A stretch of DNA of 64,000 bases from Candidatus Pacearchaeota archaeon. Its GTDB lineage: Archaea > Nanobdellota > Nanobdellia > Pacearchaeales > JAHJTO01. The translations under genes and the position numbers were made by a program. The first letter of the stretch is position 1, and each line of letters opens with the position of its first letter. The notes beneath the pieces are model-generated. The model worked only from the letters and a program-made list of their open reading frames with translations, searched no databases and was not told the origin of the DNA. Positions 22,494-60,785 of this stretch are shown here, in pieces. The stretch spans positions 142,584 through 206,583 of the forward strand of contig JAWCMS010000001.1 of the NCBI GenBank assembly GCA_038849525.1, written 5' to 3'.

Positions 22494-22754
22494 TTATGCT
22501 AAATCTTCTTCACTTACAACTACAAAATCACCTATTGCTATAATTGCACTATAAGGAATAAGTAAATCATTATCTTTTGTTTTTTCTAACCCTAAAGAGA
22601 GAGCATAAGCTGTAGGTTGTGTAAGCATTAGATGTATTAATTCACCAGTTTTTATTTCAAAAGTAATATCTTTTACTACACCAAGCCTCCTACCTTCTTT
22701 TGTTACTACGCTTTTAGTAAGAATTTCTTTAAGAGGCTTTTTTTCTAATGCCAT
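22494..22754 (-). CDS. PRC-barrel domain protein
   Basis: 86 aa with VVTKEGRRLGVVKDITFEIKTGELIHLML, a PRC-barrel pattern. A paralog lies at 44483..44758. Confidence 0.55.
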   Translation of the reverse strand: MALEKKPLKEILTKSVVTKEGRRLGVVKDITFEIKTGELIHLMLTQPTAYALSLGLEKTKDNDLLIPYSAIIAIGDFVVVSEEDLA

Positions 22755-22895
22755 ATTCTTTTATAAGTTAATTAATTTATAAATGTTTCTATTTTATAAT
22801 GACTTTTTTATAATAAAGTAGTAAGAGCTTTAAAATTTAAATTTATGTTTAATTTGATATCTAAAATAATTTTAAAAATTCGTTTAATTTTTTAA

Positions 22896-22926
22896 GTGTC
22901 CCCTTCATTGCTTATGGAAATATAAA
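22896..22926. repeat. ORB-like box 1 (G-string plus ATGGAAATATA)
   Basis: gtgtccccttcattgcttATGGAAATATAaa. Its reverse complement, TTCCATAAGCAATGAAGGGGA, resembles the archaeal ORB dyad TTCCAGTGGAAAC...GGGG. Confidence 0.45.
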
Positions 22927-23080
22927 AAAATTTAAAAAGATTGTCAAAAATTTTATTTTCTTTTTTTATTTAATTTATAAATTTTTATATATTTTTATAT
23001 TATATATTATAAATATATTTTTCTAATATATTTTTTAAAAATAAATTATCTTATAAAATAAATAAATATTTTTAAATTTT

Positions 23081-23104
23081 GTTTCCAATGGAAATATAGG
23101 TCTG
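23081..23104. repeat. mini-ORB-like box 2 (TTCCAATGGAAA dyad)
   Basis: gTTTCCAATGGAAATATAgg contains the palindromic core TTCCA-ATGGAA, like the mini-ORB TTCCAGTGGAAA. Confidence 0.5.
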
Positions 23105-23232
23105 TATTATTATTTTTCATTTGAAATATATTTATAAAAGGAGCTTTTTTTAAAAAATAACAAAAAATGTAAAAGGAGGCAAAAGAGGCTAAGGATTTAA
23201 TAAATTTTATAATTTATTTTTAAGATAGCCTT

Positions 23233-25961: not shown

Positions 25962-25968
25962 TAAAAAC

Positions 25969-28900: not shown

Positions 28901-29412
28901 CTAGGCTTGGAGAAGAGGAAAAAGATGCAAATGTTTTCGAGGATTTATGGTTTACTCATGATACTTTAGATATCAATAATGGAACTATTTGTTCTTCTTA
29001 TAAAACACTTGAAACAATGCAAGACAAAGTAAAAGCGCAGATGGAACTTGCAGAAAAAATTCGGGCTGTAGATACAACAGATGTTGCAAGGCTTGTTATC
29101 GAAAGACATTTTATTCGTGATATTAGGGGAAATTTGAGAAAATTTTCAGGACAGCAATTTCGCTGTGTTGATTGTAATACGAAATACAGAAGGCCACCTT
29201 TGACTGGCAAATGTTTAAATTGTAATGGAAGAATAATATTCACAATTGCTGAAGGTTCTATTGTTAAGTATCTTGAGCCTGCTCTTCAACTAGCTGAAAA
29301 ATATAATATCTCACCTTATCTTAAACAAAGTTTAGAATTAACAAAGTCTTACATCGAGAGTATTTTCGGTAAAGAATTAGAAAAACAGCAAGACTTAGAA
29401 AGGTGGTTTTAA
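25969..29412 (+). CDS. polC: DNA polymerase II (PolD) large catalytic subunit DP2
   Basis: 1147 aa. Zn fingers CDNCKQET...CEKCNNKT...CPLCE and C-terminal CVDCNTKY...CLNCNG. No intein-sized insertion. Confidence 0.85.
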   Translation: MQQYFKEIENKVKVAYSIAGEARAKGLDPVSIVEIPLATSLAERVTGLISTKYPQVRNSGIEKRIKELEKQYGFLDSAICLQIAEEVAKERFCKFQNMEEALDAGIRIAFAYITLGVVSSPLEGFTHFKIKKTIDGKDYMAVYYSGPIRSAGSTTAAFSLLIIDHLREVFGFAKYDPTEQEIKRMITEIYDYHERVANLQYLPTEQEIYFMFKNLPIQVTGDPSEEREVSNYKDLARIETNKIRNGPCLVLGEGLAQKSFKILKRLNHLREKGFKLTDWDWLKDFTELQKKLIAEKKEKATGTYIQDIVAGRPVFSHPSRSGGFRLRYGRARTSGYSAIAISPLTMVLLNNFIAIGTQIKLEKPTKAAAVTSCDTIEGPIVKLKDGSLVKIKDLKEANEIKPYVEEIVYLGDILISYGDFLNRNHILLPAGYNEEWWYAELLEKDKIEAEKINPLDISLDKAIELSEKYEIPLHPKYIFYWSQINYELFFAMLKWLEKAKIINGKLILDYTEKEKKAKRALELLGVEHKKEGDKFVVDEIITKAFFLNLGKRIEEINELIRQPEQREGVLEFINSFSKYKIKDKAGTFIGARMGRPEKAKLRKLVGSPHVLFPVGEAGGRMRSVQEAMKSYVEADFPIYFCDNCKQETIYFICEKCNNKTRKLCYCPLCERIVGENCPQHGGIQGGKVKTFMQKRIDLSYYVNSALNYLNIQKTDIPELIKGVRGTSSEEHIPEHIAKGILRAQFSLNVNKDGTIRYDASEVPITHFKPKEIDTEIKKLKELGYTKDIFGKELVDKEQILCLKPQDIILPSCPETLDEKADDVFVNIAKFIDNLLVRFYKQKPFYNVKSRDDLVGHLVVGIAPHNCAGVVGRIIGFSKTQTFLASPYMHAAMRRDCDGDEAAIMLLLDLLLNFSKKFLPAHRGGTQDAPLVLNARIRASEVDDMILDMDITKNLPLELYKAAEEFKSPSSIKIENIGTRLGEEEKDANVFEDLWFTHDTLDINNGTICSSYKTLETMQDKVKAQMELAEKIRAVDTTDVARLVIERHFIRDIRGNLRKFSGQQFRCVDCNTKYRRPPLTGKCLNCNGRIIFTIAEGSIVKYLEPALQLAEKYNISPYLKQSLELTKSYIESIFGKELEKQQDLERWF

Positions 29413-44829: not shown

Positions 44830-45324
44830 ATGGTTGCTTTAGGAATTTTAGGATCTGAAATTTTTACTAATGTTATTCTCCCATTTTTGTTTATTTTTAC
44901 AGTTATATTCGCAATTTTGGAAAAAACAAAATTTCTTGGAGAAAAGAAAGACATAAGTGCTATAGTTGCTCTTGTTTTTGGTTTAGTAAGTGTAGGTGTC
45001 CCATGGGCAATAGGCGTAGTTTTGAATATTATTCCGATAGTCGCAGTAATAGTTGTGATACTAATATCTTGGCTTATGACTTATGGGTTCATGGGTGGCT
45101 ATGAACCTGGAAAAGGAATTTCTGATGCTTGGAAAAAGACCTTTCAAATCTTATTAGGATTAGCTTTTATAGGAATAATAGTATTTTCAACTGGCATTTA
45201 TAAATTAGTAATGAACAAACCAGATTTAGCACGTCAAATAGGAGAGGCTATATTAATGATTGGAGCAATTATTGCAGTTATTGCTATAGTTATTTCTGGT
45301 GAAAAAGCTACGCCTGGCAGGTAG
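44830..45324 (+). CDS. membrane protein, paralog 1 of a tandem triplet
   Basis: Conserved N-terminal block ILPFLFIFTVIFAILEKTKFLGEKKDI shared with the next two ORFs. Confidence 0.5.
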   Translation: MVALGILGSEIFTNVILPFLFIFTVIFAILEKTKFLGEKKDISAIVALVFGLVSVGVPWAIGVVLNIIPIVAVIVVILISWLMTYGFMGGYEPGKGISDAWKKTFQILLGLAFIGIIVFSTGIYKLVMNKPDLARQIGEAILMIGAIIAVIAIVISGEKATPGR

Positions 45325-45341
45325 AAGTCGAGACTCTTAAA

Positions 45342-45911
45342 ATGGTACACTTTTTTGATTTTAGGTATGCATTAATGCAATGGGAAGCGATAGGTATTTT
45401 TGATGTTATGCTGCCTTTTTTTCTTATATTTACTATTATATTTGCAATTCTTCAGAAAACCAAGATTTTTGGAGCAAGAAAAGGAATCGATGTTATTATC
45501 GCAATGACTATTTCTGCGCTTACGATTTTAAATCCTTTTGTAAATGATATTTTGAAAATAATATTGCAAAATGCAGTTATAGCTATTCTTATTATAATTG
45601 CTTTAATGCTTCTTTTAGGATTAATTTGGGGAGCGAAAAGACCTGAAATATGGACATATATTGGTGGAATGATTGGGCTTGTGATTTTTGTCTGGATTTT
45701 AGGAAGAGTGGCAGATTATTATGAAATGTATTATCCAGGAACTATAATCTTTTCGAGAGTGTGGTGGGAAAATAATTTACCATGGATAATTCCTCTTTTG
45801 ATTATAATTATTTTTGCAATAGTAGTTATAAGCTCTAGCAAAGAAAGACCATCTGGAACCCCTGCAGAGAAAATATGGAATGCATTAATGGAACGAAAAG
45901 AGGAATGGTAA
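45342..45911 (+). CDS. membrane protein, paralog 2
   Basis: MLPFFLIFTIIFAILQKTKIFGARKGID. Confidence 0.5.
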   Translation: MVHFFDFRYALMQWEAIGIFDVMLPFFLIFTIIFAILQKTKIFGARKGIDVIIAMTISALTILNPFVNDILKIILQNAVIAILIIIALMLLLGLIWGAKRPEIWTYIGGMIGLVIFVWILGRVADYYEMYYPGTIIFSRVWWENNLPWIIPLLIIIIFAIVVISSSKERPSGTPAEKIWNALMERKEEW

Positions 45912-46036
45912 ATATTGCATAAAATTTTTGCAGAGTATAGTTAATGTTAATTGATTATGAGATAGCCAACATAAATTATTTTAATTCTTATTGTAACTAT
46001 AACAAATTTTAAATAGTTCTTTAATTTTTTAGAGAA

Positions 46037-46513
46037 ATGACATTATTATTACCAATAATGGCATTTTTGTTCGTATTTTTTGTAACTTATGCCTTACTTG
46101 CGAAAATCAGAATTTTGGGAGAAAACAATTTTATACATCTATTTATTAGCTTTATAATAGCAATAATTTTTGCAATTTCTCCAGGTGCAAAGGAGTTTAC
46201 TGTTATGACAATGCCATGGATCGCTGTTCTTCTTGTAATAATTTTTTCAGTTTTAATTGCATTTGCATTTGTCAAAGGAAGTATAGAAGACATAGTAAAA
46301 AGTTCTGCAGTTGCGATAATTATTGTGACTATTGTACTATTGATTTTTTTTATTTCAGCACTTAACGTCTTTGGACCTTTTTTTAGTCAGTATATGCCGG
46401 GACCAGAACAAAAACCTGGAATAATTAGTTTTTTAATTAACCCTGCTGTACTTGGAGCAATTATCTTATTAATAATTGCGGCTATTACATCATGGATACT
46501 TACAAAGCATTAG
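46037..46513 (+). CDS. membrane protein, paralog 3
   Basis: LLPIMAFLFVFFVTYALLAKIRILGENNFI. Confidence 0.45.
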   Translation: MTLLLPIMAFLFVFFVTYALLAKIRILGENNFIHLFISFIIAIIFAISPGAKEFTVMTMPWIAVLLVIIFSVLIAFAFVKGSIEDIVKSSAVAIIIVTIVLLIFFISALNVFGPFFSQYMPGPEQKPGIISFLINPAVLGAIILLIIAAITSWILTKH

Positions 46514-47946: not shown

Positions 47947-50241
47947 ATGATTTTCAGACCAGAAACAAAGTTATATTCTTATGAAGTAGTCAGAGAAGCA
48001 GGGCAGGATGTAATGTATATAAATTATATTGGACATCCAAGTGTACCTTCTATCGCTGATTCTGCAATTGTGATGGCAAGGACAATTGATAATCTAATAG
48101 AATCTCCAAGGGTTAGTAAAATTGTTTTTGTACAACAGAGAAATTATGTTTATGATCTTAATCAAACTTCATTACTCATAGAAATCGCACAGCTTTATAC
48201 TTTTCTCATCGAACAAGAAAAAATTCTTTCTCCAAAGAAATTAATTCCTTTTGGAGAGCAGCAATTTTTGCAGCAAAGGTATAATGCTATGAGGTGGCTG
48301 ATTTTAACTTTGTTAAAGCAAGATCCAATAGGTTGTTATATTGAAGCTAAGAGGTTATTAAGAGAAGAAAAAATAAATGCAGAAAGAATTGCTGCAGAGT
48401 ATGTTCATTCTGAAAATGCTTACATAAGATTACTAAGTAAAATTGTTGAAATGCTTGAAGGAACTAGGTTAATTAGAGAGGCTAGAGATATTGATATTGA
48501 AGCACATAAAATAGGAGACAGAGAAATTTATAGAAAATTTTTTAGACCAGATGTTGTTCCAAATTTCACTTTTACGAGATTAATGGCGAGTTTACCAATC
48601 GGAGCAGATATTTTAGATGAATATAAAGTAGAATCTGGATATGATAAGAGTTTAGTAACTATCTTAAAAATACCTGGAACTGGAAGACCTATTTACCATT
48701 TACAAAGTCCTGAATTTATGTTAGAAGAAAATTTTTACAGCTTAATCGATTTAGCAAGAAGTGTTTTAATTGAGCACAGGCCAAAAGCAGAAGAATTTAT
48801 CGATCCACAAAGAACAAGACAGGTTTTTTTTAATATATCTCGAGATTTATTAAGAGAATTAGCTGAAAGTAGAAAAATTTCTTTGTCTTACAGGCAACTT
48901 AACAAACTTGCAACAATTCTTGTTAGACATACAATCGGATTTGGCTTAATTGAAGTGCTTTTACAAGATGAAAGGTTACAAGATATTGTTGTAAATGCAC
49001 CTGTTTCACAAACGCCAATATTTGTAAGGCATCAGGATTTTGATGAATGTGTTACTAACATTATTCCTGCATATGAAGATGCAGAAGCGTGGGCTGCTCG
49101 TTTTAGATTAATTTCAGGAAGGCCTTTAGACGAAGCAAATCCTGTTCTTGATACTGATTTGGAGATAGAAAATGTAAGGGCAAGAGTAGCAATTATACAA
49201 CAACCATTGTCTCCGTATGGACTTGCTTATGCTTTAAGAAGACATAGAGAAAAGCCATGGACCTTACCTTTGTTCATAAAAAATAGGATGATAAACCCTA
49301 TAACTGCAGGATTATTAAGTTTTTTAATTGATGGTTCAAGAACAATTCTTTTTGCAGGGACAAGAAGTGCAGGAAAAACATCTTTGCTTGCCGCAGCAAT
49401 GCTTGAAATAATACCTAAATATAGAATAATAGTTATAGAAGATACATTAGAGATGCCCGTAAATGCATTTAAAAAACTGGGCTATGACATATTGAGAATG
49501 AAAGTTCGTTCTGCGTTGCTTAGAGAGAGCACTGAAATGGAAGCTGCTGACGGAATAAGAACGAGTTTGAGATTAGGAGATTCTTCTTTAATAGTTGGAG
49601 AAGTAAGAAGTGATGAAGCGAAAGCATTATATGAGGCAATGAGGATTGGAGCGTTAGCTAATGTTGTTGCAGGAACGATACATGGCGGCTCGCCATATGC
49701 TGTTTTTGATAGGGTTGTTAATGATTTAGGAGTGCCAATAACTTCATTTAAAGCAACCGATATCGTATTAGTTGCAAATCCGATAAAGAGTCCAGATGGG
49801 ATACATAGCTGGAGAAGAGTTACACAATTTGCAGAAATAAGGAAGCATTGGCAGAGAGATCCTTTGGAAGAAAAAGGTTTTGTTGACTTGTTAACTTATG
49901 ATGTAAAAAAAGATTCTTTAGAGCCAAGTACAGATTTAATAAACGGCGAGTCAGAAGTGATCAAAACAGTTGCAGGACAAGTAAAAGGATGGGCTGGAGA
50001 TTGGGATGCTGTATGGGATAATATTTTGCTGAGAGCAAATATAAAACAAGAATTAGTTGAAAAAGCAAAAATTACAGGTATAAAAGATCTACTTGAAGCT
50101 CCTTTTGTATTGAAGAGCAATAATATGTTTCATGAATTTTCAGATAAAATTACTAAGGAGATAGGCATTCCTGAAGGTAAAAGAGTATTTAGCGAATGGA
50201 AAGACTGGTTAAATGAAGAAATAAGAAAAAGAACTTTATAA
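47947..50241 (+). CDS. Type II/IV secretion-family ATPase (FlaI/PilB/VirB11-like) with long N-terminal extension
   Basis: Walker A GTRSAGKTS, Asp box RIIVIEDTLE, Walker B LIVGEVRSDEA, His box GTIHGGSP. 764 aa. Confidence 0.75.
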   Translation: MIFRPETKLYSYEVVREAGQDVMYINYIGHPSVPSIADSAIVMARTIDNLIESPRVSKIVFVQQRNYVYDLNQTSLLIEIAQLYTFLIEQEKILSPKKLIPFGEQQFLQQRYNAMRWLILTLLKQDPIGCYIEAKRLLREEKINAERIAAEYVHSENAYIRLLSKIVEMLEGTRLIREARDIDIEAHKIGDREIYRKFFRPDVVPNFTFTRLMASLPIGADILDEYKVESGYDKSLVTILKIPGTGRPIYHLQSPEFMLEENFYSLIDLARSVLIEHRPKAEEFIDPQRTRQVFFNISRDLLRELAESRKISLSYRQLNKLATILVRHTIGFGLIEVLLQDERLQDIVVNAPVSQTPIFVRHQDFDECVTNIIPAYEDAEAWAARFRLISGRPLDEANPVLDTDLEIENVRARVAIIQQPLSPYGLAYALRRHREKPWTLPLFIKNRMINPITAGLLSFLIDGSRTILFAGTRSAGKTSLLAAAMLEIIPKYRIIVIEDTLEMPVNAFKKLGYDILRMKVRSALLRESTEMEAADGIRTSLRLGDSSLIVGEVRSDEAKALYEAMRIGALANVVAGTIHGGSPYAVFDRVVNDLGVPITSFKATDIVLVANPIKSPDGIHSWRRVTQFAEIRKHWQRDPLEEKGFVDLLTYDVKKDSLEPSTDLINGESEVIKTVAGQVKGWAGDWDAVWDNILLRANIKQELVEKAKITGIKDLLEAPFVLKSNNMFHEFSDKITKEIGIPEGKRVFSEWKDWLNEEIRKRTL

Positions 50242-50252
50242 TCTAAATAAAA

Positions 50253-52376
50253 ATGGTAAATAAAAAGGTTGAAGAAATACTAAGGAGATATAGCTCACAG
50301 ATCGAAAGAGCAGTAAGGACTGAAAAGTTTGAGTCTGAATATTCAAAAGAATATCTTAAATTTAAAGAAGAACTTTCTCCAGAACTCTCAAACTATGAAA
50401 AGTTTGCAAAAAATGCTGGCAAAATAATAAAATTAAAAATAAATGAAAAAGATAAAGCAAAAATAAATGAACATTTGGAAAGAGCACATTTGGATGTTAA
50501 AGCAGAAGATGCTGTAGCATTTTCTCTTCTTTCTTTTATTATTTCACTTTTGATTTTTTCACTTTTAATTGCAACACTCTTTCTTTTAGATATTGAAGTT
50601 CCAATATTAATTATTATTCTTGCTTTTTTAATCTCTATTTTTATTTATTTTTATGTTTCTTCACTACCAGAAAAAATAAGCCAACAATGGAAATTAAAAG
50701 CAAGTTCTCAGATGGTTCCTGCAATTTTGTATATTGTTGTTTACATGAAACACACAAGCAATTTAGAGAGAGCAATTAAATTTGCAAGTCAGCATTTACA
50801 ACCTCCACTATCTCTTGATTTCAAAAAGATACTATGGGATGTTGAAACTGGAAAATATACAACAATAAAAGAGTCTTTAGATTCTTATCTTGAAGGCTGG
50901 AGAACATACAGCCCAGAATTTATAGAATCATTTCATCTTATTGAAAGTTCATTGTATGAGCCGAGCGAGGCAAGAAGGATTGCTGTTTTGGAAAAAGCAT
51001 TATCTGTCATTCTCGATGGGGTTTATGACAAAATGTTAAAATATACTCATGATGTTCAAGCACCTTTAACTAATCTTTATATGCTTGGTATTGTACTTCC
51101 AACATTAGCGATAGCCTTGTTACCTCTAGCTTCTACTTTACTTGCAGGTACAATAAAGTGGTGGTATGTTGCGATATTCTTTAATTTGATTATACCTTTT
51201 TTTGTTTATTATCTTACTTCTGGTGTTCTTGTAAAACGACCCGGAGGATATGGAGATACAGAAATGCTTGAGCTTAATCCAGAATATCCTTATTACAAAA
51301 GTAGCATTCATTATTACAAAGCTCTTATTGTTGCAATTCCTTTTTTTATAATTGGTATAATACCTTTGATGGTTTATTTTGGATTTTTCCCAGATTATAG
51401 TTTTAAAGAAATAGGAATGCAGTTTCCTTCTTTAGAAGAAATGAAAATATTTGGTTTTATAGATGGCAAAGGTCCTTTTGGTTTAGGTGCATTGATACTT
51501 AGCTTTTTTATTCCTCTTAGCATTGCATCTTTTTTATGGATTTCTTACTCATCAAAAACAAAAAAAATTTTAAAGATGAAAGAAGAGACCTTAAAGCTTG
51601 AAAGTGAATTTTCAAGTTCTTTATTTCAGCTTGGAAACAGACTGGGGGACAATATTCCAGCTGAAATGGCTTTTGGAAGAGTCGCTGAAAGTTCTAAGGG
51701 AACAGCAACAGAAGGTTTCTTTAGAACAGTCAACAGCAATATTCAGCAATTTGGAATGTCAGTAAAAGAAGCTATTTTTAATTCTAGTAGAGGAGCAATA
51801 ATCTACTATCCATCTGAACTTATCAGAACAAGCATGGAAATTCTTGTTGAATCTGTCAAACAAGGATTACAGGTTGCTGCAAATGCGATGATAAGCATTT
51901 CACAATATGTAAAAAATATCGGAAAAATAAATGAAAGGCTAAAGGATTTACTTGCAGATATAATAAGTAGTATGAAAAGCAATATGTCTTTCCTTGCACC
52001 TCTACTTGCAGGAATAGTTGTTGGCTTAGCAGCAATGATTACCACGATACTAACCAAATTGCAGCAAATGCTATCTCTTCCTGGAGGAGAAAATATCCCT
52101 CTTGCAGGTTCTACCTTAGGAAATTTAACAAAATCTTTTAATCTTGAAGCGATGATCCCTCCTTACTGGCTACAAATAGTAGTAGGAATATACTTAATAG
52201 AAATAATTTATATTTTAAGTATAACTCTTGTTTCAGTAGAGTCAGGAGTAGACAAATTAAAAGAAAAATCAGAAATTGCGAGAAATATGAAAGCCGGAAT
52301 CTTGCTTTATATACTTACTGCTCTTGCAGCATCATTGATATTATCAATGCTTGCAAGTATAGCTATAACTGTATAA
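50253..52376 (+). CDS. FlaJ/TadC/PilC-like polytopic membrane platform protein
   Basis: 707 aa. Two blocks of TM helices separated by cytoplasmic domains. Immediately follows the ATPase. Confidence 0.65.
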   Translation: MVNKKVEEILRRYSSQIERAVRTEKFESEYSKEYLKFKEELSPELSNYEKFAKNAGKIIKLKINEKDKAKINEHLERAHLDVKAEDAVAFSLLSFIISLLIFSLLIATLFLLDIEVPILIIILAFLISIFIYFYVSSLPEKISQQWKLKASSQMVPAILYIVVYMKHTSNLERAIKFASQHLQPPLSLDFKKILWDVETGKYTTIKESLDSYLEGWRTYSPEFIESFHLIESSLYEPSEARRIAVLEKALSVILDGVYDKMLKYTHDVQAPLTNLYMLGIVLPTLAIALLPLASTLLAGTIKWWYVAIFFNLIIPFFVYYLTSGVLVKRPGGYGDTEMLELNPEYPYYKSSIHYYKALIVAIPFFIIGIIPLMVYFGFFPDYSFKEIGMQFPSLEEMKIFGFIDGKGPFGLGALILSFFIPLSIASFLWISYSSKTKKILKMKEETLKLESEFSSSLFQLGNRLGDNIPAEMAFGRVAESSKGTATEGFFRTVNSNIQQFGMSVKEAIFNSSRGAIIYYPSELIRTSMEILVESVKQGLQVAANAMISISQYVKNIGKINERLKDLLADIISSMKSNMSFLAPLLAGIVVGLAAMITTILTKLQQMLSLPGGENIPLAGSTLGNLTKSFNLEAMIPPYWLQIVVGIYLIEIIYILSITLVSVESGVDKLKEKSEIARNMKAGILLYILTALAASLILSMLASIAITV

Positions 52377-52414: not shown

Positions 52415-53341
52415 GTGGATGATAAAAATATGAAAAATAAAAAAGGACTTACTATCACAACAATTGTAATAACTATTGTGATAATTATGTCTTTTATAAT
52501 TCTTTTAGCAGTTGTCAATCAAATAGTTGAACTAATTCCTTCTACTTTTAACAAAGAAGCATGTCGTGATTCTGTAATTGCAAGAGCAGCAATTAAGAAT
52601 CTTCCTGTTGGAGGAGAATTGGCTACAAAAAAAATTCCGTTAAAGTGTAAAACAGAATATATCTGCCTTACAATGGGGGGAGAATGTCCAACTGGTTATA
52701 ATAAAATATCTGTAAGAAATAAAGAAGACATAAACAAAGAGATTGCAAATGCGATACATGACTGTTGGTGGATGTTTGGAGAAGGAAAACTAAATTTTCT
52801 GTCTTCAGAATGGATAACAAAAGAAAAGTGTATTATTTGTTCTATAATTGCATTTGACGACAAAATTCAACAAGAGTATCCTGAAATAGCCGGATTAAAC
52901 AATTATTTATCTTATAACTTAGTTCCTAATAAAAATGTTACCTATTTACAGTATATTTCAAATAATATGGATGTACAACCTTCAATAAGTGAGAATGATA
53001 GATATTCTACTAAAGAGAAATATTCTATAATCTTCGGATATGTTGCCAAAGGAAATCTTGCAAAAAGAGTTGGTTGTATAGTTGGGGGAGGGGCAGGAGC
53101 TACAGTAGGATTTACCTTAGGAAGCGTAGTTCCTATAATTGGAAATATCGCTGGAACAGGGCTTGGTTTTACAATCGGTGCAGCAGGCTGTTACTTTGGT
53201 GCCAAAGGTGGAACAGAAGCAATAAATTTTATAAATAATTTTTTCGGAGATTACAGCAATACGGTATTGTTACAATTCTTACAATTTAACCAAAAAAACA
53301 TTGAACAGTTCGGATGTGATAAAATTGAATCAATTCCTTAA
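52415..53341 (+). CDS. large pilin-like protein with class III (prepilin) signal peptide and Cys/Gly-rich C-terminus
   Basis: N-terminus MKNKKG|LTITTIVITIVII (K-G cleavage motif plus hydrophobic helix). Confidence 0.5.
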   Translation: MDDKNMKNKKGLTITTIVITIVIIMSFIILLAVVNQIVELIPSTFNKEACRDSVIARAAIKNLPVGGELATKKIPLKCKTEYICLTMGGECPTGYNKISVRNKEDINKEIANAIHDCWWMFGEGKLNFLSSEWITKEKCIICSIIAFDDKIQQEYPEIAGLNNYLSYNLVPNKNVTYLQYISNNMDVQPSISENDRYSTKEKYSIIFGYVAKGNLAKRVGCIVGGGAGATVGFTLGSVVPIIGNIAGTGLGFTIGAAGCYFGAKGGTEAINFINNFFGDYSNTVLLQFLQFNQKNIEQFGCDKIESIP

Positions 53342-54147
53342 TTAAGTCTATTCAAATTTGTATAGAACTCTTTTACACTTAAATTATATCCTGGATCTAA
53401 ACCTACATCCATTACTATAATGTTATTTTTTGTTTTTAATATTAAAAGAGGGTAGTTGTCTTCTAATTTATATTTCCATTTCAACCTAGCACCCTTAACA
53501 TACGTCCTGAGTGGTTTTTCACTTTTTGAGACTTTAATATTTTTAATTCGAGACTGCACAGCCCGGCTAAAATTAAATTGATTGGCATTTATATTTTTTA
53601 TTGTATCAACTTCTTCTTGATTGATGTTAACATTAAACTTCTTTAATGACAATACTTTTTCTTCTAAACATGTACCTTTTCCATTTTCTATTTCACTTAT
53701 TTCTTTTTCGGTAAAATCAAATTCAGAAAGAAGATATGGTTTATCTTTAAATCTTCTATAGGTATTAGTTCTTACGTTTTCATAACCGTAAAGCGCATTG
53801 ATCTTTTTTTCAGTAAAATCATTGTCAACAAAAATATTGGCGGTAACATCAACATAGTCCCCCTTTATAAAAATTTTTGGCACTATAAGAAACTCTACTT
53901 TATTGTTATCAGCGAATTTGTTATAAAGAGAAAATAATGATTTCTCTTGAACAATTTCTATAGGTGCAAGAGTCCATCCCCAATATACGCTATCAAGATA
54001 CTCATTACCATTTAAACGTAAATTTGTTATTGTCCTATAATCTATAAAAATTGGAGATTTAAACTTTGAAAATTCTTTTTTTTGGCATCCAGTAATTGTC
54101 AGATAAGCTGCAAGAAAGCCAATCTTAGCAAGTTTAGATATACTCAT
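53338..54147 (-). CDS. putative lipoprotein / secreted protein
   Basis: N-terminus LAAYLTITGCQK is lipobox-like. Confidence 0.35.
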   Translation of the reverse strand: MSISKLAKIGFLAAYLTITGCQKKEFSKFKSPIFIDYRTITNLRLNGNEYLDSVYWGWTLAPIEIVQEKSLFSLYNKFADNNKVEFLIVPKIFIKGDYVDVTANIFVDNDFTEKKINALYGYENVRTNTYRRFKDKPYLLSEFDFTEKEISEIENGKGTCLEEKVLSLKKFNVNINQEEVDTIKNINANQFNFSRAVQSRIKNIKVSKSEKPLRTYVKGARLKWKYKLEDNYPLLILKTKNNIIVMDVGLDPGYNLSVKEFYTNLNRLN

Positions 54148-54299
54148 TTCATAATAAAGATATTTGTTTTATTTAAGGATTTATATAGAAAAAAAATATA
54201 TTTATATAAATTAACATTTGGTTAGCTGATTTTTGATGGTTCATGATAAACACCTCTTTTATTATCTCTTTAAGTTTCTATACCTAAAAGATATACTTT

Positions 54300-55274
54300 T
54301 TAGCATGTAGCAGTTGAAGGAATATGATTTGGCAGCCCTATTCTTGCCCAATCAAAATTACTCGGATCTATTTTTCTATCTCTCATGCCTTGAAGAGTTT
54401 CATAATGGCCAATGATATGTTTATCATCATATTTTATATCAGGCCATCTTTTTATTATATCTTTAATTAAATTATTTAATGATGAGTACTGTGCATCTGT
54501 ATATCCAAAATTTTTGCATCCTGTGCTAACAAGTTCTATACCTATTGAAAAATCATTGTATGGGTATCCAGCATGGATAGCTTTTTGAGTTTCATCAACA
54601 AGATAATATATTTTGCCATCTCTATCTATTATATAATGAACAGAATTTCCAGAATTTTTGAGAAAATTATAAGCCTCTATAAAATTTGTTCCAGCGGTAT
54701 GATGCAAGACGATAGTATTAATTTTTGTATCTTTATCTCTTGGTTTTGATTGAAGGGTATAAGATGTATTGACTTTTATTTCTGGTATAGTTGTTCTTTC
54801 ATATTCTTTTAGTGTTCCTTGTTCTGAAATAACACTTAAAATAGAATATTCTGTAGGGTTATTTTTAATATAAAGTTCCATTATCTTAATTTGCATGGAA
54901 ATGCTTTTACCATCTTTTTTTAATGGTTTTTCTATATTATTACAGTATTTTTCTTCTGATTTAACTGGACAGTCTTTATCTTTGCAGATACATATACAAT
55001 TTTGGCTAGCACATATTATGGGGCTACTTTCTATTTTATCATAAGAAACAAGCCAGTATCCTTGAGGAGCATAAACAATAAAAGAATCGATATTTTCATT
55101 TTTTATATCTCTTAAAAAATTTATTAGATTTGTTAAAGTCTCTTTTGCTTGTTGTTCCTCTTTACTTTTTAAAAAATTACCATAGATGTTAGTGCATGCG
55201 CCTATTACTGCTATTATAAGAAAAACTGTAAGAAGCAGATACATTACTTCTTTTAATAAAGACATTTCGGGCAT
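54300..55274 (-). CDS. Secreted N-acetylmuramoyl-L-alanine amidase (Amidase_2/PGRP-type) with Cys-rich linker
   Basis: C-terminal domain IVLHHTAGTNF...SVHYIIDRDGKIYYLVD...AIHAG...NDFSIGIELV...HYE...RKIDPSNFDW matches the H-H/T-A-G...H-A-G...IGIE pattern of T7-lysozyme/AmiD-type amidases. N-terminal signal/TM plus C-x-C-x-C-x-C region. Confidence 0.7.
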   Translation of the reverse strand: MPEMSLLKEVMYLLLTVFLIIAVIGACTNIYGNFLKSKEEQQAKETLTNLINFLRDIKNENIDSFIVYAPQGYWLVSYDKIESSPIICASQNCICICKDKDCPVKSEEKYCNNIEKPLKKDGKSISMQIKIMELYIKNNPTEYSILSVISEQGTLKEYERTTIPEIKVNTSYTLQSKPRDKDTKINTIVLHHTAGTNFIEAYNFLKNSGNSVHYIIDRDGKIYYLVDETQKAIHAGYPYNDFSIGIELVSTGCKNFGYTDAQYSSLNNLIKDIIKRWPDIKYDDKHIIGHYETLQGMRDRKIDPSNFDWARIGLPNHIPSTATC

Positions 55275-55372
55275 TTTGCTAAAAAGAAAAAGAATTATTT
55301 AAATTTACTTGTTTATCTTATAAACAAATAAGAAAAAATGACTATTGACTAGTTACTAACCCAAATGGCTTT

Positions 55373-55648
55373 TTAGCAACTAGTAATCTCTTTACAATAT
55401 TTTACACCAATATTTCTTATTGTAACAGTTGCATTATCAAATAACTCTTGTTTGCCTACAGCCCTTGCACTCGTGCATATATCATCACATCTTGCTTTTG
55501 CTTGAGACAATTCTATTTCTGTCGTACCCATAATTTTATCCCAAAGATTTTTCATTCCTCCAGAAAAGGCTGCGGCTACTACAACTAAAACAATCAAAGC
55601 CAAGATTATTATTATAATAGTCTCGATTGAAATAGCCCCTCTTTTCAT
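55373..55648 (-). CDS. archaeal type IV pilin (class III signal peptide, DUF361-like)
   Basis: MKRG|AISIETIIIIILALIVLVVVAAAF is the classic archaeal prepilin motif. Confidence 0.65.
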   Translation of the reverse strand: MKRGAISIETIIIIILALIVLVVVAAAFSGGMKNLWDKIMGTTEIELSQAKARCDDICTSARAVGKQELFDNATVTIRNIGVKYCKEITSC

Positions 55649-55715
55649 GTTAGTTAGAATAAAAAAGTATATTTAAATATTTCTAATCCTTCAATTAAAC
55701 TAGGAATATCTAAAC

Positions 55716-57893
55716 ATGTTAGAGAGTATATTATTAAAAACAAAGAAAGCAATTCTTCCTTTAGCCATTTCTTCTACTATTCTTTCATTTTCAAATGCAT
55801 CTACACCATACATCTCAATTGTTAATCTAGATAATAAAAATTATAGAGTCTTATTTGATGAAAATAACAAACCCCATGTTAATGCTGAAAATCTAGAGAT
55901 TGCAAAAAAAGCTGCTTTTAAAGCCCTAATCAATCAAAAGTCAGAGGAGCTTGAGACGCATGTAAAATCTCTGACTTATGAGTCTCTTCAAACAATCTTT
56001 GGACCTATTGAAAGAGGCAAGGAAATTGACAATAAAATCAATACTATTGATAAATATCTTGGTTTAGACGAAGATATTCCTTTCTGGATTTTCTCTGTTC
56101 TTGAATATAGGGAAAAATTCGATAAAAAGCTTCTTGCTGATGTTTTTGAAGCATGGAAATATAGGAATAATGCATTAAAATTTTTGAAAAGCATTGAAGA
56201 AAGAGAAGATTTAGCTAATACCTACAAAAATCTTTGCATAATAGATGAAAATATTCTTGATATGACTGAAAATATAAAAGAAAAAAATGAACTTACAAGT
56301 ATTAAATTTATTCTTGATAAGAAACACATAGATTTTTTTCTTGATAAACTTTTAAGAACATGGAATTTAGAAGAAGCTAAAGAAAAAATTGAAGAAATAA
56401 AAAAAGAACTTGAAAATCCTGCTGTTAGAGAATTAAAAGAAGATTTAGAGAAAACATTAGAAGAAAGTCGAGATTATAGGAAGAATAAAGAAAAATCAAA
56501 AGAAAAAGAGATAGGAAAAATTATAAGAGATCAAGATATTATCTCGGAAACTCCTGAAAAAATTTTCCAAAAAAATTTTATTGTTCCTTTATTTACTCAA
56601 TCAAATCCTTCTTTTCAAACTTTTGAAAATCAAGAAAAAGCATCTTTAGATATTTCAATTGAAAAATATAATTTAAAGGAAGGTTGTATCTTAGAATTAA
56701 TAGTTCTTTCAGATAAAGTATTCAATAAAGCAAAAACAAATATTTTTTGCATACATTTACCAGAAACAAGAATAGGAAAGATAGGCCAAAAAGCATACAC
56801 TTTTAGTACAAGATACAGGCAGTTTAGACAATGGGAGGAAATTCTACCATATGGCCAAGATAAGTATATTCTTCTTGAGATGGATGCAACAAAATGGGCA
56901 TTCAACAAAATGATTTCGATGACAATGAAAGGAAATATAATAAAAACAAAAAATCTTCTGAGATTTATAGGTGAAAATATTTACGGAGTTGAACTTGAAA
57001 GAGATGTGAATAAGCTAAATGATAATGTTATAAAAAAATTAAATGATGCATACTCTGTTCATGGTATAAAAATTAATCCTGTAGGGGCTTTTAGGCAGGC
57101 TCAAGGTTATCTTTTTCTTATTCCGATATATAATTTTCAAAAAGACGTTATTCTCTATATGAACTTAACGATGCAATCTGGTTTGATACCATCAGAAAAA
57201 GGCTTCGGTGTACCTTCGGGATATGAGGAAGCAGAAGGAAGACTTGAAGATTTAGTGATTTCAGTAAATAAAAAAACAGCTTTTCAAGGTTTTATAACAG
57301 CCGAAGAACAGCAACAAGAAAAATATGATAAAAGTCTTATTAATTTCCTAGAGAATAAAAAAAATGAATTTGAAAAAGAAAATCCTTTCGCCACTTATGA
57401 CTATGAAATTACAGCTTATGATAAAAACAAAGCTGAAGTTAAAGTTAACTTGACATTTACGAGAAAAATTGGGCTACAAGAATGGAAAAACGAAGCTCTT
57501 AGTTTGGGGACTAAAATCCTTAATTCAAACCCTGCTGATTTAGGAAGAATTCTTGAACAAAGCAATACTGATTTATTAAACTCTGAAAAAAAAGAATTTC
57601 ATTCTTTAAAACTTTGGCTAGAAAAACAAGGAGAAAGGTGGTATGAAAAATATTCTACAGAAAAAGATATCAAAAGAAGTTTAGAGATAATAAGAAGAAT
57701 GATTAATATTTATTACGAAAATCATAAAAAGTATCCTCAAGCCCTTAAAGATTTAAGAGAAGATTTTAATGAAAAAAGTCCAGAAGTATTAGAATTATGT
57801 GAGATCGGTTCAAGAACTTTTGTAAGAGAAAGTGAACTCATTTATGATAAAAACAATGGAAAAATTTATTATAAACCATTTCTTAAATGGTAG
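55716..57893 (+). CDS. large secreted hypothetical protein
   Basis: 725 aa. N-terminal signal-like segment ILPLAISSTILSFSNAS. Confidence 0.45.
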   Translation: MLESILLKTKKAILPLAISSTILSFSNASTPYISIVNLDNKNYRVLFDENNKPHVNAENLEIAKKAAFKALINQKSEELETHVKSLTYESLQTIFGPIERGKEIDNKINTIDKYLGLDEDIPFWIFSVLEYREKFDKKLLADVFEAWKYRNNALKFLKSIEEREDLANTYKNLCIIDENILDMTENIKEKNELTSIKFILDKKHIDFFLDKLLRTWNLEEAKEKIEEIKKELENPAVRELKEDLEKTLEESRDYRKNKEKSKEKEIGKIIRDQDIISETPEKIFQKNFIVPLFTQSNPSFQTFENQEKASLDISIEKYNLKEGCILELIVLSDKVFNKAKTNIFCIHLPETRIGKIGQKAYTFSTRYRQFRQWEEILPYGQDKYILLEMDATKWAFNKMISMTMKGNIIKTKNLLRFIGENIYGVELERDVNKLNDNVIKKLNDAYSVHGIKINPVGAFRQAQGYLFLIPIYNFQKDVILYMNLTMQSGLIPSEKGFGVPSGYEEAEGRLEDLVISVNKKTAFQGFITAEEQQQEKYDKSLINFLENKKNEFEKENPFATYDYEITAYDKNKAEVKVNLTFTRKIGLQEWKNEALSLGTKILNSNPADLGRILEQSNTDLLNSEKKEFHSLKLWLEKQGERWYEKYSTEKDIKRSLEIIRRMINIYYENHKKYPQALKDLREDFNEKSPEVLELCEIGSRTFVRESELIYDKNNGKIYYKPFLKW

Positions 57894-57899
57894 TAGATT

Positions 57900-58520
57900 T
57901 TAACAAGCCTCTATTTTAGAGAAAAAGGCTTGCTGCTCTTCTTTGCTTTTACCAAAAATAAATAAATTTTCAAATCCTTTTTCTTTATATACAATAAATG
58001 ATAAAGTAGAAGAATTTTTATAAATGTTTGGTGAGATTATTTCATCGCCATTAAATTCTGCTATTTTTTCAAATGTTATCAAATTTTCTATTTCTTCTTT
58101 TATTTCTATTATATTTTCATCTTTGTTTAAAACTCCTGTAATAGACACATTATTCATGGTATAACTTCTAAAAGTTTTATCATTATATTTGAAATTAATA
58201 TTTGCATAACGATTAATTAAAGTACCCCTATTTATTATCTGCATGCTTACTTCTTTAGGAAGATTTACGAAAGCATCTTTACACAAGCAATTGTTTTTTT
58301 GCTTTAATTTGCATTCTTCAAGTTTTGAAATAAAATTATCTACTGCGCTATTGATAGAATATTTGGTAGTTACAGGCAGTGATTGAAAATCTATTTTTGT
58401 TTCTGGTGCTAAGTAAGTATTATAAAAAGAGTAAATCAACAAAAATATTATTGCTACTGCGATTATAACAAGTATAAGATTTATTAATTTTTCAAAAGTT
58501 AGCTCCATTTTATCTTCCAA
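57900..58520 (-). CDS. hypothetical protein with N-terminal TM helix
   Basis: 206 aa with LINLILVIIAVAIIFLLIYSF. Confidence 0.4.
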   Translation of the reverse strand: MEDKMELTFEKLINLILVIIAVAIIFLLIYSFYNTYLAPETKIDFQSLPVTTKYSINSAVDNFISKLEECKLKQKNNCLCKDAFVNLPKEVSMQIINRGTLINRYANINFKYNDKTFRSYTMNNVSITGVLNKDENIIEIKEEIENLITFEKIAEFNGDEIISPNIYKNSSTLSFIVYKEKGFENLFIFGKSKEEQQAFFSKIEAC

Positions 58521-58668
58521 ATCTAAAAATATCTAATATATTCTGAAGGGCTGCAGCTAATCTCCCTGTTGCTAACGAATTTATAAACAAAATAAGTATC
58601 ACAAGCACAGCCAGTCCTATTATCCATTTTCCAATTTCAGCAAATTCGAATCCTTTTTTATTTTTCAT
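58510..58668 (-). CDS. small pilin-like protein (52 aa) with class III signal peptide. Not in the ORF track.
   Basis: Manual translation: MKNKKG|FEFAEIGKWIIGLAVLVILILFINSLATGRLAAALQNILDIFRFGR. Confidence 0.4.
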   Translation of the reverse strand: MKNKKGFEFAEIGKWIIGLAVLVILILFINSLATGRLAAALQNILDIFRFGR

Positions 58669-58830
58669 GTTAGTAACGAAGGAATTATCTTTTTTAAAAT
58701 TACATAATAGGCAAGCATAATAATTATTATATAAAGCAGTATTTTTAGTAACAGTTCTAAACTTAATGAACCTTTTTTCATAATTCTTAATGATAAATAT
58801 TGTTAATAAACTTTATTAATTAGATATTGT

Positions 58831-59169
58831 TTGAAAAATAAGAAAATGAACAGAGGTGGGACTGAAGATTTGTTGTGGAATCTAGGACTTATTCTTATCT
58901 TTCTTTTTGTTGCAGGAATATTATTTGTATGGGAATCAAATCAAGTAACAGGAAAGGCTGTTAAATCAGAAATTATTGCAAAACAGACAGCATTGCTTAT
59001 TGATAGTGGTAAACCAGGAACAATAATATTTGTTGATGCAAATATTACTATAGAAGGAAATAAAATAATTGCATATTATGAAAATAGCAAATTTGAATAT
59101 TCATTTTTTAATAAGAATAAAATTTCATATAAGCAAACAGGAAGAGGAACTGAAATTAAGATAGAATGA
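58831..59169 (+). CDS. pilin-like / secreted small protein
   Basis: N-terminus MKNKKMNRGG|TEDLLWNLGLILIFLFVAGILFV. Atypical class III motif. Confidence 0.4.
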   Translation: MKNKKMNRGGTEDLLWNLGLILIFLFVAGILFVWESNQVTGKAVKSEIIAKQTALLIDSGKPGTIIFVDANITIEGNKIIAYYENSKFEYSFFNKNKISYKQTGRGTEIKIE

Positions 59170-59630
59170 ATCGCAAAGGACAGGTTTTGAGTGAAGGAAT
59201 AATACTAGTATGGAAAATTTTTCTTATCATATTTGTAATATTATTTGTTGTAATTACAATAACACCTGTTTTTACAACGAAATTAGATATAAGGCAGCCA
59301 GAAGGTCTGCTTATTGCAAAGAGTATTCTTGAATGTGTTTCCAATAATGGAATTGTAGAACAAGGTATTGATTTTAAAAATTGCATAATTTTAGATGAAA
59401 ATGAATACTATATTAATACTTCTTTAACCTCATTTGATTCAAATTTGAAAAAAGAAAGTATTTTCGGAATAGATTTAGAGGTCCTATGCTCTTTTCCTGG
59501 AAAATATTTATCATCACCTTCATGTATAAGACAAAAATATTATGTTTTAATTAACAACAATGGGAAAATAGAAAAAGGAACTCTTAATTTACTTATTGGA
59601 ATAAAAAAATTTGCTGAAAATGTCAAATAA
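59166..59630 (+). CDS. pilin-like protein (class III signal peptide)
   Basis: MNRKG|QVLSEGIILVWKIFLIIFVILFVV. 4-bp overlaps suggest an operon. Confidence 0.55.
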   Translation: MNRKGQVLSEGIILVWKIFLIIFVILFVVITITPVFTTKLDIRQPEGLLIAKSILECVSNNGIVEQGIDFKNCIILDENEYYINTSLTSFDSNLKKESIFGIDLEVLCSFPGKYLSSPSCIRQKYYVLINNNGKIEKGTLNLLIGIKKFAENVK

Positions 59631-60078
59631 AAAGGGTCAATTATTAGGAGAAACAGCAGCATTAATTGTAGCAACTATCATAATATTCATTTTGCTAGTT
59701 GTTTTCTTTTTTCTTATAAAAAGTATTTCAATAGCAAAAGGAACTGATTCAGAAACTATTCTATTACAAGAACAAAATATAGTTTCATTAATGGCTTATT
59801 TAAACACTCCTGTTAATATTCAAGAACAAGAGATGAAAATGATTGATTTAATTAGACTTACATCTATTGATAAGAATTATAAACTTTTATTGGAAGAAAA
59901 AACAAAAGAAATTTTTAATAAGGTTTATGGAAATGATTATCAATTTTGGATTATTCAAGATAGTAAGACTATAATTCAAATAAGTCCATTAGAAACTACG
60001 AAATATGGGTGGGTTCAGACTAAAATGGAATTGCCTGGAAAAATAATTGTCTATCTCCAACTAAAAAAACTAAAATGA
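59611..60078 (+). CDS. pilin-like protein (class III signal peptide)
   Basis: MSNKKG|QLLGETAALIVATIIIFILLVVFFF. Confidence 0.55.
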   Translation: MLKMSNKKGQLLGETAALIVATIIIFILLVVFFFLIKSISIAKGTDSETILLQEQNIVSLMAYLNTPVNIQEQEMKMIDLIRLTSIDKNYKLLLEEKTKEIFNKVYGNDYQFWIIQDSKTIIQISPLETTKYGWVQTKMELPGKIIVYLQLKKLK

Positions 60079-60785
60079 ACAGCAAATCACAGATTCCAGA
60101 AGCTGTATTAATTTTGATAGCTCTTGTTGTTTGTGGGACTACTTTATATTATATAGTAACATATGGAACAATAAAAGCAGAAACAATAAATATAAATAAA
60201 TCTATTGATATATTTAATGAAGCAGAAAAATTTGATTATTATATTCGCGATTTCTCTGACATGGCTTTACAAGAAAGCTATGCTGAAGTTACTAAAAAAC
60301 CCTTGGTTTGTCAGGAGCAAATAGGAACAGTAGCTATCTGGAGTGAGAAATGCAAACCTAATAATCAAGAAATTAAAAATAAAATAAAGTTAAAATTTGA
60401 TGAAAAATTATCAAAAATTGGAAAACTTTTTAGTTCTGAGATAAAAGAAAAAATAAATGTAAAATTTGAACCAATTATTTTTAATAATTCTAATAAAAAT
60501 AAGTTTGTTTCTTATAATATAAGTTATACATTATTTCCATCATTTTCTCTTGATTATCCAAAAATTGATTTCGAAGAGATATATTCTGCAATTATAACAA
60601 AAAAAGTAGAATGTGAAAATAAAGACAATCAGCAGGAATGCATGCAGCAATTAAATTTTGAAAATTGGAATTTTAGGCTGGAGTCAAGCACAAATTATTA
60701 TCTCTTTACTCTTTATTCAAAAAAATCATATTTTTATGATAATTCATTCAAACCTGTTGAATTTTCATTTGCCATAAAAAAATAA
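60075..60785 (+). CDS. pilin-like protein (probable class III signal peptide)
   Basis: MNSKS|QIPEAVLILIALVVCGTTLYYIV. Confidence 0.45.
   Translation: MNSKSQIPEAVLILIALVVCGTTLYYIVTYGTIKAETININKSIDIFNEAEKFDYYIRDFSDMALQESYAEVTKKPLVCQEQIGTVAIWSEKCKPNNQEIKNKIKLKFDEKLSKIGKLFSSEIKEKINVKFEPIIFNNSNKNKFVSYNISYTLFPSFSLDYPKIDFEEIYSAIITKKVECENKDNQQECMQQLNFENWNFRLESSTNYYLFTLYSKKSYFYDNSFKPVEFSFAIKK

Follow-up and report, generated by a model that had tools for sequence, protein, structure and literature searches.

Here we describe a gene on the minus strand (positions 54300-55274) of a 64,000-nucleotide stretch of contig JAWCMS010000001.1 from Candidatus Pacearchaeota archaeon, the whole of which is called the window in the following. 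The gene encodes a protein of 324 amino acids (aa) that joins a pilin-like N-terminal module to a peptidoglycan amidase domain and lies within a type-IV-filament locus. Our data point to a surface-displayed murein amidase that is coupled to the filament machinery and aimed at bacterial walls, a reading to which we give a probability of roughly 60%. Besides the domain assignment, the description relies on an AlphaFold2 (AF2) model, whose confidence is expressed as predicted local distance difference test (pLDDT). The protein is organised as follows:

54300..55274, minus strand: gene of the bimodular protein (pilin-like carrier plus Amidase_2), 324 aa, supported by the open reading frame (ORF), an identical NCBI protein and an AF2 model with a mean pLDDT of 92.3.
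54825..55274, minus strand: N-terminal carrier module, aa 1-150, with a helix at aa 3-56 (hydrophobic core aa 10-28) and a beta-sheet head at aa 62-150.
54942..55013, minus strand: cysteine cluster C88-x4-C93-x-C95-x-C97-x4-C102-x8-C111 inside the beta-sheet head.
54783..54824, minus strand: linker between the modules, aa 151-164, the sole low-confidence stretch of the model (pLDDT <50 at aa 152-154).
54303..54782, minus strand: Amidase_2 catalytic domain, aa 165-324, supported by Pfam, AmpD and AmpDh2 alignments, Foldseek and conservation.

The ORF is maximal as given. Stop codons lie directly 5' of the ATG and make an upstream extension impossible, and an alternative upstream start that would provide the window copy with a KKG leader was rejected on this ground. 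The homologue P0007 differs from the window copy in this respect, as an alternative start there yields an MKRG leader. An identical protein, encoded on a contig of 400 kb, is named 'MAG: N-acetylmuramoyl-L-alanine amidase [Candidatus Pacearchaeota archaeon]' at NCBI (MAG, metagenome-assembled genome). The amidase annotation as such had thus been made before, and what is added here is the pilin-like N-terminal module.

For the catalytic domain, Pfam Amidase_2 (PF01510) matches aa 183-305 with an E-value of 5.8e-29 and 101.5 bits against a gathering cut-off of 26, covering profile positions 3-130 of 131. The motifs on which an earlier sequence-only reading had based its assignment are present, namely VLHHTAG (H191), AIHAG (H234) and SIGIEL (E247), and IIGHYE (H290) and RKIDP (K301, D303) are found in addition. 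The Amidase_2 identity it had proposed is borne out by the Pfam search. Based on alignment, H191, H290 and D303 are the putative zinc ligands, E247 and K301 the putative catalytic residues, and Y214 in VHY the putative tyrosine of the HY motif. H191/E247/H290/K301/D303 fall on H34/E116/H154/K162/D164 in the AmpD residue numbering, which agrees with the chain numbering in the structure alignment. H191, E247 and H290 show no variation within 53 homologues, in which K301 and D303 are conserved to at least 90%, and an alignment of 16 sequences gives the same picture (invariant or at least 90%). The zinc ligands H191, H290 and D303, whose conservation the sequence-only reading had left to be checked, are thus present and conserved throughout the 53 sequences.

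Among proteins of solved structure, AmpDh2 (E 2.5e-12), AmpD and AmpDh3 are closest in sequence. The AF2 model, which was built on the alignment of the 53 homologues, reaches a pLDDT of ~90-98 across the amidase domain, and a Foldseek search of the PDB returned AmpD first (2y2b, E 8e-10, target-normalised template modelling (TM) score 0.64-0.68) together with AmpDh2/3 and AmiD, followed by phage amidase endolysins and, lower in the list, by non-catalytic peptidoglycan recognition proteins (PGRPs). The domain is accordingly modelled with the alpha/beta fold of PGRPs and T7 lysozyme, and its sequence looks like that of a catalytically competent zinc amidase. A non-catalytic PGRP identity was rejected because of the intact active site; the concern that non-catalytic PGRP-like domains might turn out as the best homologues is laid to rest by the leading position of AmpD, AmpDh2/3, AmiD and the phage endolysins. 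With AmpD, AmpDh2, AmpDh3 and AmiD the window protein shares the fold, the zinc ligands (H, H, D) and the catalytic Glu and Lys, and it differs from these amidases in being archaeal, fused to a pilin-like module and not located in the cytoplasm or periplasm of a murein-containing cell. It does not qualify as an AmpD orthologue, since the AmpD equivalog model (NCBIfam NF008758, cytoplasmic anhydro-muramyl-peptide amidase) gave 68.7 bits against a cut-off of 143, and the N-terminal membrane helix and the archaeal pilus locus do not match the cytoplasmic context of AmpD. We consider it likely that this is an active murein amidase that acts outside the cell.

The N-terminal module contains a single hydrophobic segment (aa 10-28), which in the model belongs to one continuous helix (aa 3-56) leading into the beta-sheet (aa 62-150) that holds the cysteine cluster, with disorder predicted only at aa 152-154. 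The six cysteines (C88, C93, C95, C97, C102, C111) read 'QNCICICKDKDC...YC' in the sequence; five of them (C88, C93, C95, C97, C111) are invariant in a 10-member alignment, the six-cysteine pattern is conserved across the carrier family, and these residues may form disulfides or a metal site. The sequence-only reading had described an N-terminal signal or transmembrane segment and a Cys-rich linker. The hydrophobic segment and the cysteine cluster were seen correctly, and the linker was not, as the cysteines lie in a folded domain: what was taken for a linker is predicted to be a folded head on a long helix, which recalls the 'lollipop' shape of type IV pilins. Similarly, the label of a 'secreted' peptidoglycan amidase holds for the amidase, and free secretion is less likely than an anchoring in the membrane or in a filament. 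The carrier falls outside the bacterial pilin signature and bears a weak resemblance to solved pilin structures. Full-length homologues mostly start with MKKG or MKRG(Q) followed by a hydrophobic stretch, and in 137 of 157 sampled family members the hydrophobic core is directly preceded by [KR][G/A/S] (104 with G, 30 with A and 3 with S), the leader being mostly 4-8 residues long. Judged by sequence, the leaders of the family follow the pattern of archaeal class III (prepilin) signal peptides.

Around the amidase gene, the window contains the following genes:

47947..50241, plus strand: type-IV-filament assembly ATPase, 764 aa (Pfam T2SSE; NCBIfam FlaI, TadA).
50253..52376, plus strand: polytopic membrane protein, 707 aa, with ~8-9 hydrophobic segments by hydropathy, directly 3' of the ATPase gene; putative platform protein.
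52415..53341, plus strand: 308-aa pilin-like protein with an MKNKKG leader and then a hydrophobic helix; orthologues in all syntenic loci.
55373..55648, minus strand: 91-aa small pilin-like protein (MKRG/AISIETIIII...), encoded next to the amidase gene on its upstream side and in the same orientation.
55716..57893, plus strand: protein of 725 aa, a conserved member of the locus; its N-terminus is Sec-like, it contains no known domain, and L001 and L008 have orthologues.
57900..58668, minus strand: two pilin-like ORFs, one of 206 aa (57900-58520) and one of 52 aa (58510-58668, MKNKKG leader).
58831..60785, plus strand: four pilin-like ORFs (112, 154, 155 and 236 aa; RGG, RKG/Q, KKG/Q and KS/Q leaders); orthologues in all syntenic loci.

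The genes for RPA and RadA come after the run of four pilin-like ORFs. Altogether, ten ORFs with pilin-like N-termini, the amidase included, are found at 52415-60785, and seven of the ten have a [KR]G or KS leader. The best PDB matches of the ATPase are the GspE-type ATPase of A. fulgidus (2oap), CpaF and FlaI; the model of the bindosome ATPase BasE matches weakly, and FlaI and TadA match far better. The 707-aa product is a candidate platform protein by the position of its gene. Taken together, the FlaI/TadA-type ATPase, the polytopic membrane protein and the roughly ten pilin-like ORFs mark the surroundings as a pilus-type locus, which confirms the embedding of the amidase gene that had been proposed from the sequence. 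Two further groups of genes adjoin this set. A 269-aa protein with a lipobox-like N-terminus (LTITGC) and no Pfam match flanks the amidase gene (53338-54147), and a tandem array of genes for three small, paralogous membrane proteins (164, 189 and 158 aa, with 4-5 hydrophobic segments each) is located just upstream of the filament locus (44830-46513) and is syntenic in L001, L002, L007 and L089.

The arrangement is shared by the loci of the amidase homologues P0003, P0006 and P0007. The syntenic order comprises the ATPase (~764 aa), the polytopic membrane protein (~720 aa), an 84-97-aa pilin, the hydrolase, pilin-like ORFs, RPA, RadA, aS21/EF1-beta/HIT and a Peptidase_A24, and the orthology is borne out by BLASTP identities of 69-84% for the ATPase, 56-77% for the membrane protein and 64-86% for RadA. 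The Peptidase_A24 gene is located 7-9 kb downstream in L001, L002, L003, L006, L007 and L008, and the equivalent position in our contig lies beyond the end of the window. An 84-99-aa orthologue of the 91-aa pilin precedes the hydrolase gene in L001, L002, L006, L007, L008 and L091. All ten sampled contexts (L001, L002, L003, L006, L007, L008, L089, L090, L091 and L092) are archaeal.

A comparison within this syntenic slot reveals that the enzymatic part of the protein, which we refer to as the 'warhead', is not constant: the slot is occupied by a Glucosaminidase protein in L007, by a VanY/M15 protein in L008 and by SLT proteins in L089 and L090. The N-module of the window protein is 46% and 45.5% identical to those of VanY-bearing members versus 33-35% to those of several amidase-bearing members. 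When 52 N-modules are arranged in a neighbour-joining tree, 15 changes are required to account for the four warheads, at a possible minimum of 3 (mean 28 and minimum 21 after label shuffling), a count that is probably too high because the tree was made from 160 divergent columns and is noisy. The distance between 15 and 3 argues that warheads have been exchanged repeatedly on a carrier that was kept, as far as the module sequences can tell. L091 has a stand-alone 157-aa carrier with no catalytic domain in the same syntenic slot (7751-8224), and because a module without a warhead fills the slot there, the carrier has a function in its own right and warheads can be acquired or shed. Arsenals of several warheads exist in other DPANN genomes: proteins of 560-1245 aa that combine the amidase clade with SLT are encoded at other loci, e.g., L012 5016-8753, L024 4872-8516 and L019 6792-8474, of which the L019 protein bears a KKG pilin-like leader, and in L010 (248-2389) a VanY gene directly adjoins the amidase gene.

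To describe the carrier family as such, 1.84 billion proteins were searched using HMMER and a profile of the N-module only, which yielded 2084 cluster representatives at E <= 1e-3, of which 998 pass the stricter threshold of E <= 1e-10. The architecture survey comprises the best 150 of these 2084 representatives, and the genomic contexts are likewise a sample of the family. By size, the 150 include 61 proteins of 145-209 aa, which consist of the module alone, and 86 longer proteins. In the latter, Pfam recognises SLT (13), Glucosaminidase (13), Amidase_2 (8), VanY/Peptidase_M15 (8), 3D (1) and Lysozyme_like (1), and a separate classification of the cargo by hidden Markov models (HMMs) gave equal counts. 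Every cargo domain that Pfam recognises in the 86 long members is a peptidoglycan hydrolase. Since these unrelated catalytic folds have nothing but the substrate in common, murein is the most economical target for the family. The bacterial target that had been suggested on the basis of the window sequence is still a proposal, and it is considerably strengthened by the fusion of one carrier to several unrelated peptidoglycan hydrolase folds in the same syntenic slot.

A rearrangement was observed within the locus. A 6.2-kb block that includes the amidase gene (52427-58671) is inverted relative to all six syntenic relatives compared (L001, L002, L006, L007, L008, L089). Its edges are formed by a 21-nucleotide inverted repeat with arms at 52427-52447 and 58651-58671, which match at 20 of 21 positions (0.01 matches expected by chance), and the repeat ATGAAAAATAAAAAAGGA is the leader-coding start (MKNKKG) of the two pilin-like genes at the boundaries. 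The inversion could be a simple evolutionary event mediated by the repeated leader sequence, or it could act as a switch that changes which pilin-like gene is located after the platform gene.

The window is part of an archaeal chromosome. It carries an S9-L13-L18e-RpoD-S11-S4 cluster together with DUF655, Orc1/Cdc6 and both PolD subunits (DP1/DP2), and also a 5S rRNA; the archaeal host assumed in the sequence-only reading is substantiated by L18e, by the Fe-S insert of RpoD, by DUF655, by Orc1/Cdc6 and by the PolD subunits. The guanine-cytosine (GC) content is 24-34% across the window and flat over the amidase locus (0.28-0.31). A scan of one genome per species in 185,579 species showed that the closest amidase domains (33-57% identity) all come from Nanoarchaeia, Woesearchaeota, Pacearchaeota or MAGs labelled 'uncultured Methanosarcinales'. 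The next-closest domains belong to lipoproteins of Bacillaceae (38-42%) and to PG_binding_1-amidases of Myxococcus, from which the window protein differs in having neither a lipobox nor a PG_binding_1 domain. Because of the native composition and the pattern and conservation of homologues across DPANN genomes, the sequence data fit an old acquisition from bacteria with a subsequent diversification within DPANN. The records of an 'uncultured Methanosarcinales archaeon' with DPANN-type amidases (L009, L010, L015, L016 and L053) have taxonomic labels that look doubtful, and L009 and L016 also have an ORF matching the carrier module.

How could such a protein work? The long helix, which changes from hydrophobic to amphipathic, would anchor the protein in the membrane or in the core of a type-IV filament, and the small head, stabilised by its cysteines, would together with the short flexible linker present the amidase outward. 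The protein would be made and used together with the adjacent machinery, i.e., the FlaI/TadA-type ATPase, the platform-like protein, the minor pilin-like proteins and a prepilin peptidase. Where contact is made, the amidase would cleave MurNAc-L-Ala bonds (MurNAc, N-acetylmuramic acid) and strip stem peptides from bacterial glycan strands, so that the wall of a bacterial host or prey, or bacterial debris, would be breached or loosened, and the carrier would be kept across related archaea while the warhead was exchanged. The domain identity, the intact active site, the predicted fold, the architecture of the family, the synteny and the exchange of warheads come directly from the computational results; the outside-facing topology, the activity on murein, the coupling to the filament and the bacterial target are inferred. 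The substrate should be bacterial because the producer has no murein, and filament coupling is suggested by the class III leaders of most family members, the fixed slot among minor pilins and the precedent of bacterial modular pilins. Incorporation at the tip or into the filament is the most speculative step and in our view rather doubtful. The same tentative status applies to a wall-breaching pilus in which the minor-pilin-like carrier would display a peptidoglycan hydrolase at the tip or base of the filament and a cassette-like warhead would match the wall chemistry of the bacterial host. It is equally conjectural that amidase, LAS peptidase, lytic transglycosylase, glucosaminidase or 3D domains would take turns as the cassettes of such a pilus. 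If it were true, Pacearchaeota and Woesearchaeota would be cross-domain episymbionts or predators of bacteria, and the type of warhead would be a genomic predictor of host range.

Several observations weigh against a filament-coupled amidase directed at bacterial walls. M[PA]EMSLLKEV is the N-terminal sequence of the window copy (MPEMSLLKEV) and of P0056 and P0058, the VanY-bearing proteins most closely related to it, and the [KR]G motif is lacking in all three. In the window copy the helix is present, the cleavage motif is absent, and the window copy may therefore escape prepilin processing. This sub-clade (window 55263-55274; P0056, P0058) spans both Amidase_2 and VanY versions, looks genuine rather than a product of sequencing or start-calling errors, and is probably an uncleaved, 'leaderless' variant. 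The candidate platform protein has no sequence match in Pfam or the PDB and none to FlaJ, TadC or PilC. A cell-wall-binding domain is missing, as Amidase_2 is the only Pfam domain of the protein at E <= 1. About half of the long carrier proteins (44 in the HMM classification) have cargo with no Pfam match, so the statement that all cargo is a peptidoglycan hydrolase holds for the recognisable half only; ten representatives of the unclassified cargo searched against Pfam at E <= 0.1 gave one real domain (3D in P0165) and otherwise hits below the cut-off or nothing. Finally, the absence of murein synthesis genes refers to the 64-kb window only.

The most serious competitor shares most steps with the favoured reading and differs in purpose and assembly state only. 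The protein would be a surface-anchored scavenging ecto-enzyme whose pilin-like N-terminus serves as a membrane anchor or for a bindosome-like assembly, and which harvests stem peptides from free or dead peptidoglycan; living cells would not be attacked, nor would the protein become part of a filament. In the bindosome of Sulfolobus, sugar-binding proteins with class III signal peptides are assembled by BasEF. This system provides an archaeal precedent for non-filament proteins with pilin-type N-termini that use a pair of type-IV-filament-like ATPase and membrane protein, and it differs from our case in its cargo, which consists of solute-binding proteins for uptake and not of wall hydrolases. 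Scavenging would suit the missing cleavage motif of the window copy, the weak match of the ATPase to the BasE model and the lack of a wall-binding domain that would keep the protein on its target. It would also suit the minimal biosynthesis of Pacearchaeota, for which peptidoglycan of dead bacteria has been proposed as an amino-acid source (PMC11537232). What makes us regard it as less likely, even so, is that the gene constantly occupies one slot among the minor-pilin genes of a filament locus conserved in many genomes, and the swapping of glycan-cleaving (SLT, Glucosaminidase) with peptide-cleaving warheads, which fits wall breaching better than a harvest of peptides.

A different purpose would be the remodelling of the archaeon's own envelope, in which the enzyme opens a murein- or pseudomurein-like layer for filament assembly. 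Dedicated peptidoglycan hydrolases of bacterial trans-envelope machines, such as the glucosaminidase FlgJ, the SLT enzymes VirB1, BfpH and PilT of R64, and TagX of the type VI secretion system (T6SS), have this function, and SLT, glucosaminidase, amidase or endopeptidase genes are dedicated parts of bacterial flagellar, type IV secretion system, type IV pilus and T6SS loci. The mixed hydrolase types at one position of our locus resemble this bacterial pattern, and the likeness extends to a gene inside the cluster of the machine and to different folds for the same local job of making a hole in murein. The difference is that those enzymes open the wall of the producer, whereas the producer here has none and the wall would be that of another cell. 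The chemistry of SLT (formation of 1,6-anhydro-MurNAc) and of VanY (D-Ala-D-Ala) is unfit for pseudomurein, no mur genes were found within the 64-kb window, and the group is not known to make murein, with murein hydrolases described as 'normally absent in Archaea' (PMC8204110). We therefore judge self-remodelling to be improbable.

Still less credit can be given to a non-catalytic adhesin in which the Amidase_2/PGRP fold would bind peptidoglycan and tether the pilus to bacterial walls. The fold is common to non-catalytic PGRPs, which do appear lower in the Foldseek list, and modular pilins typically bear binding modules (PMC8179133), but all three zinc ligands and the catalytic Glu and Lys are present and conserved family-wide, the best matches are catalytic amidases, and the alternative warheads are enzymes as well. 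The least credible explanation, which is largely refuted by synteny, is that the gene is unrelated to the pilus genes and represents an endolysin remnant from a virus or prophage, or else bacterial contamination or an island of horizontal gene transfer of recent date. Amidase_2 is common in phage endolysins, T7 lysozyme and Thermus phage endolysins are among the matches and a tyrosine recombinase is encoded elsewhere in the window (6842-7648), but the GC content is flat over the locus (0.28-0.31), on which ground, together with the synteny, a recent transfer or prophage origin was rejected. At least seven independent archaeal contigs have the gene in synteny between the core genes for the filament ATPase, RPA and RadA, the closest amidase domains in the 185,579 species genomes are all from DPANN archaea, and no phage genes are nearby in the window.

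Returning to the coupling of a wall-directed amidase to the filament machinery, the closest precedents in design are the modular type IV pilins PilB and PilC of Streptococcus sanguinis, which carry a vWA and a lectin module, respectively (Raynaud et al., 2021; PMC8179133), and whose bulky C-terminal modules have been modelled at the pilus tip (PMC8179133). The window protein is similar to them in having an N-terminal pilin carrier, a short linker, a C-terminal effector and a gene in a pilus locus. It differs in being archaeal, in a carrier that is off the bacterial pilin signature, in effectors of the family that cut peptidoglycan rather than bind, and in the missing cleavage motif of the window copy. 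Peptidoglycan hydrolases are not mentioned in the main text of that study (PMC8179133). With respect to the target, archaeal peptidoglycan hydrolases have been proposed as anti-bacterial weapons and are prominent in Nanoarchaeota (Strock et al., 2025; PMC12352652), and very large GH23/SLT proteins of up to 3000 aa have been reported from Pacearchaeota and Woesearchaeota (Castelle et al., 2021; PMC8204110; Vigneron et al., 2022; PMC9723730). A targeting of bacterial walls by these two groups has thus already been proposed from other hydrolases (PMC8204110; PMC9723730; PMC12352652). What our protein has in common with the reported ones is a murein-cleaving enzyme in an archaeon devoid of murein that is read as a tool against bacterial walls; a pilin-like carrier, a fixed slot in a filament locus or an exchange of warheads is not described for them. 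The survey of Strock et al. included only hydrolases that also carry a Pfam cell-wall-binding domain (PMC12352652), and with Amidase_2 as its only Pfam domain the window protein falls outside this definition. A 2026 preprint that classifies archaeal type-IV-filament systems mentions neither peptidoglycan nor hydrolases, and the papers on archaeal type-IV filaments and DPANN hydrolases that we covered, an incomplete selection, report neither a fusion of pilin and hydrolase nor, in a conserved archaeal filament locus, a pilin-like carrier whose peptidoglycan hydrolase cargo is exchangeable.

Of the archaea that have not been cultivated, Pacearchaeota and Woesearchaeota are among the most abundant. 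Interchangeable murein hydrolases on one carrier are strong genomic evidence that these organisms engage with bacterial cell walls. The type of warhead could guide host prediction and co-culture attempts, and the carrier offers an epitope for localisation. Moreover, the finding extends the concept of the 'modular pilin' to archaea and to enzymatic cargo, and it adds a class of archaeal peptidoglycan hydrolases with no wall-binding domain that lies outside the inclusion criterion of the published survey.

Outside the filament locus, two regions of the window deserve mention. Orc1/Cdc6 (23233-24447) is followed directly by the small and large subunits of PolD, and the lowest GC content of the window (0.24) is found at 22-24 kb; the region 22000-29412 is likely a replication origin region. 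In the other region, the following three genes are located within ~6 kb:

6842-7648: tyrosine recombinase.
8583-9533: DprA-like protein (DNA_processg_A, E 4e-51).
11144-12607: Cas4/DUF2779 nuclease-like protein.

The presence of DprA and a type-IV-filament locus in one archaeal genome may raise the question of DNA uptake.

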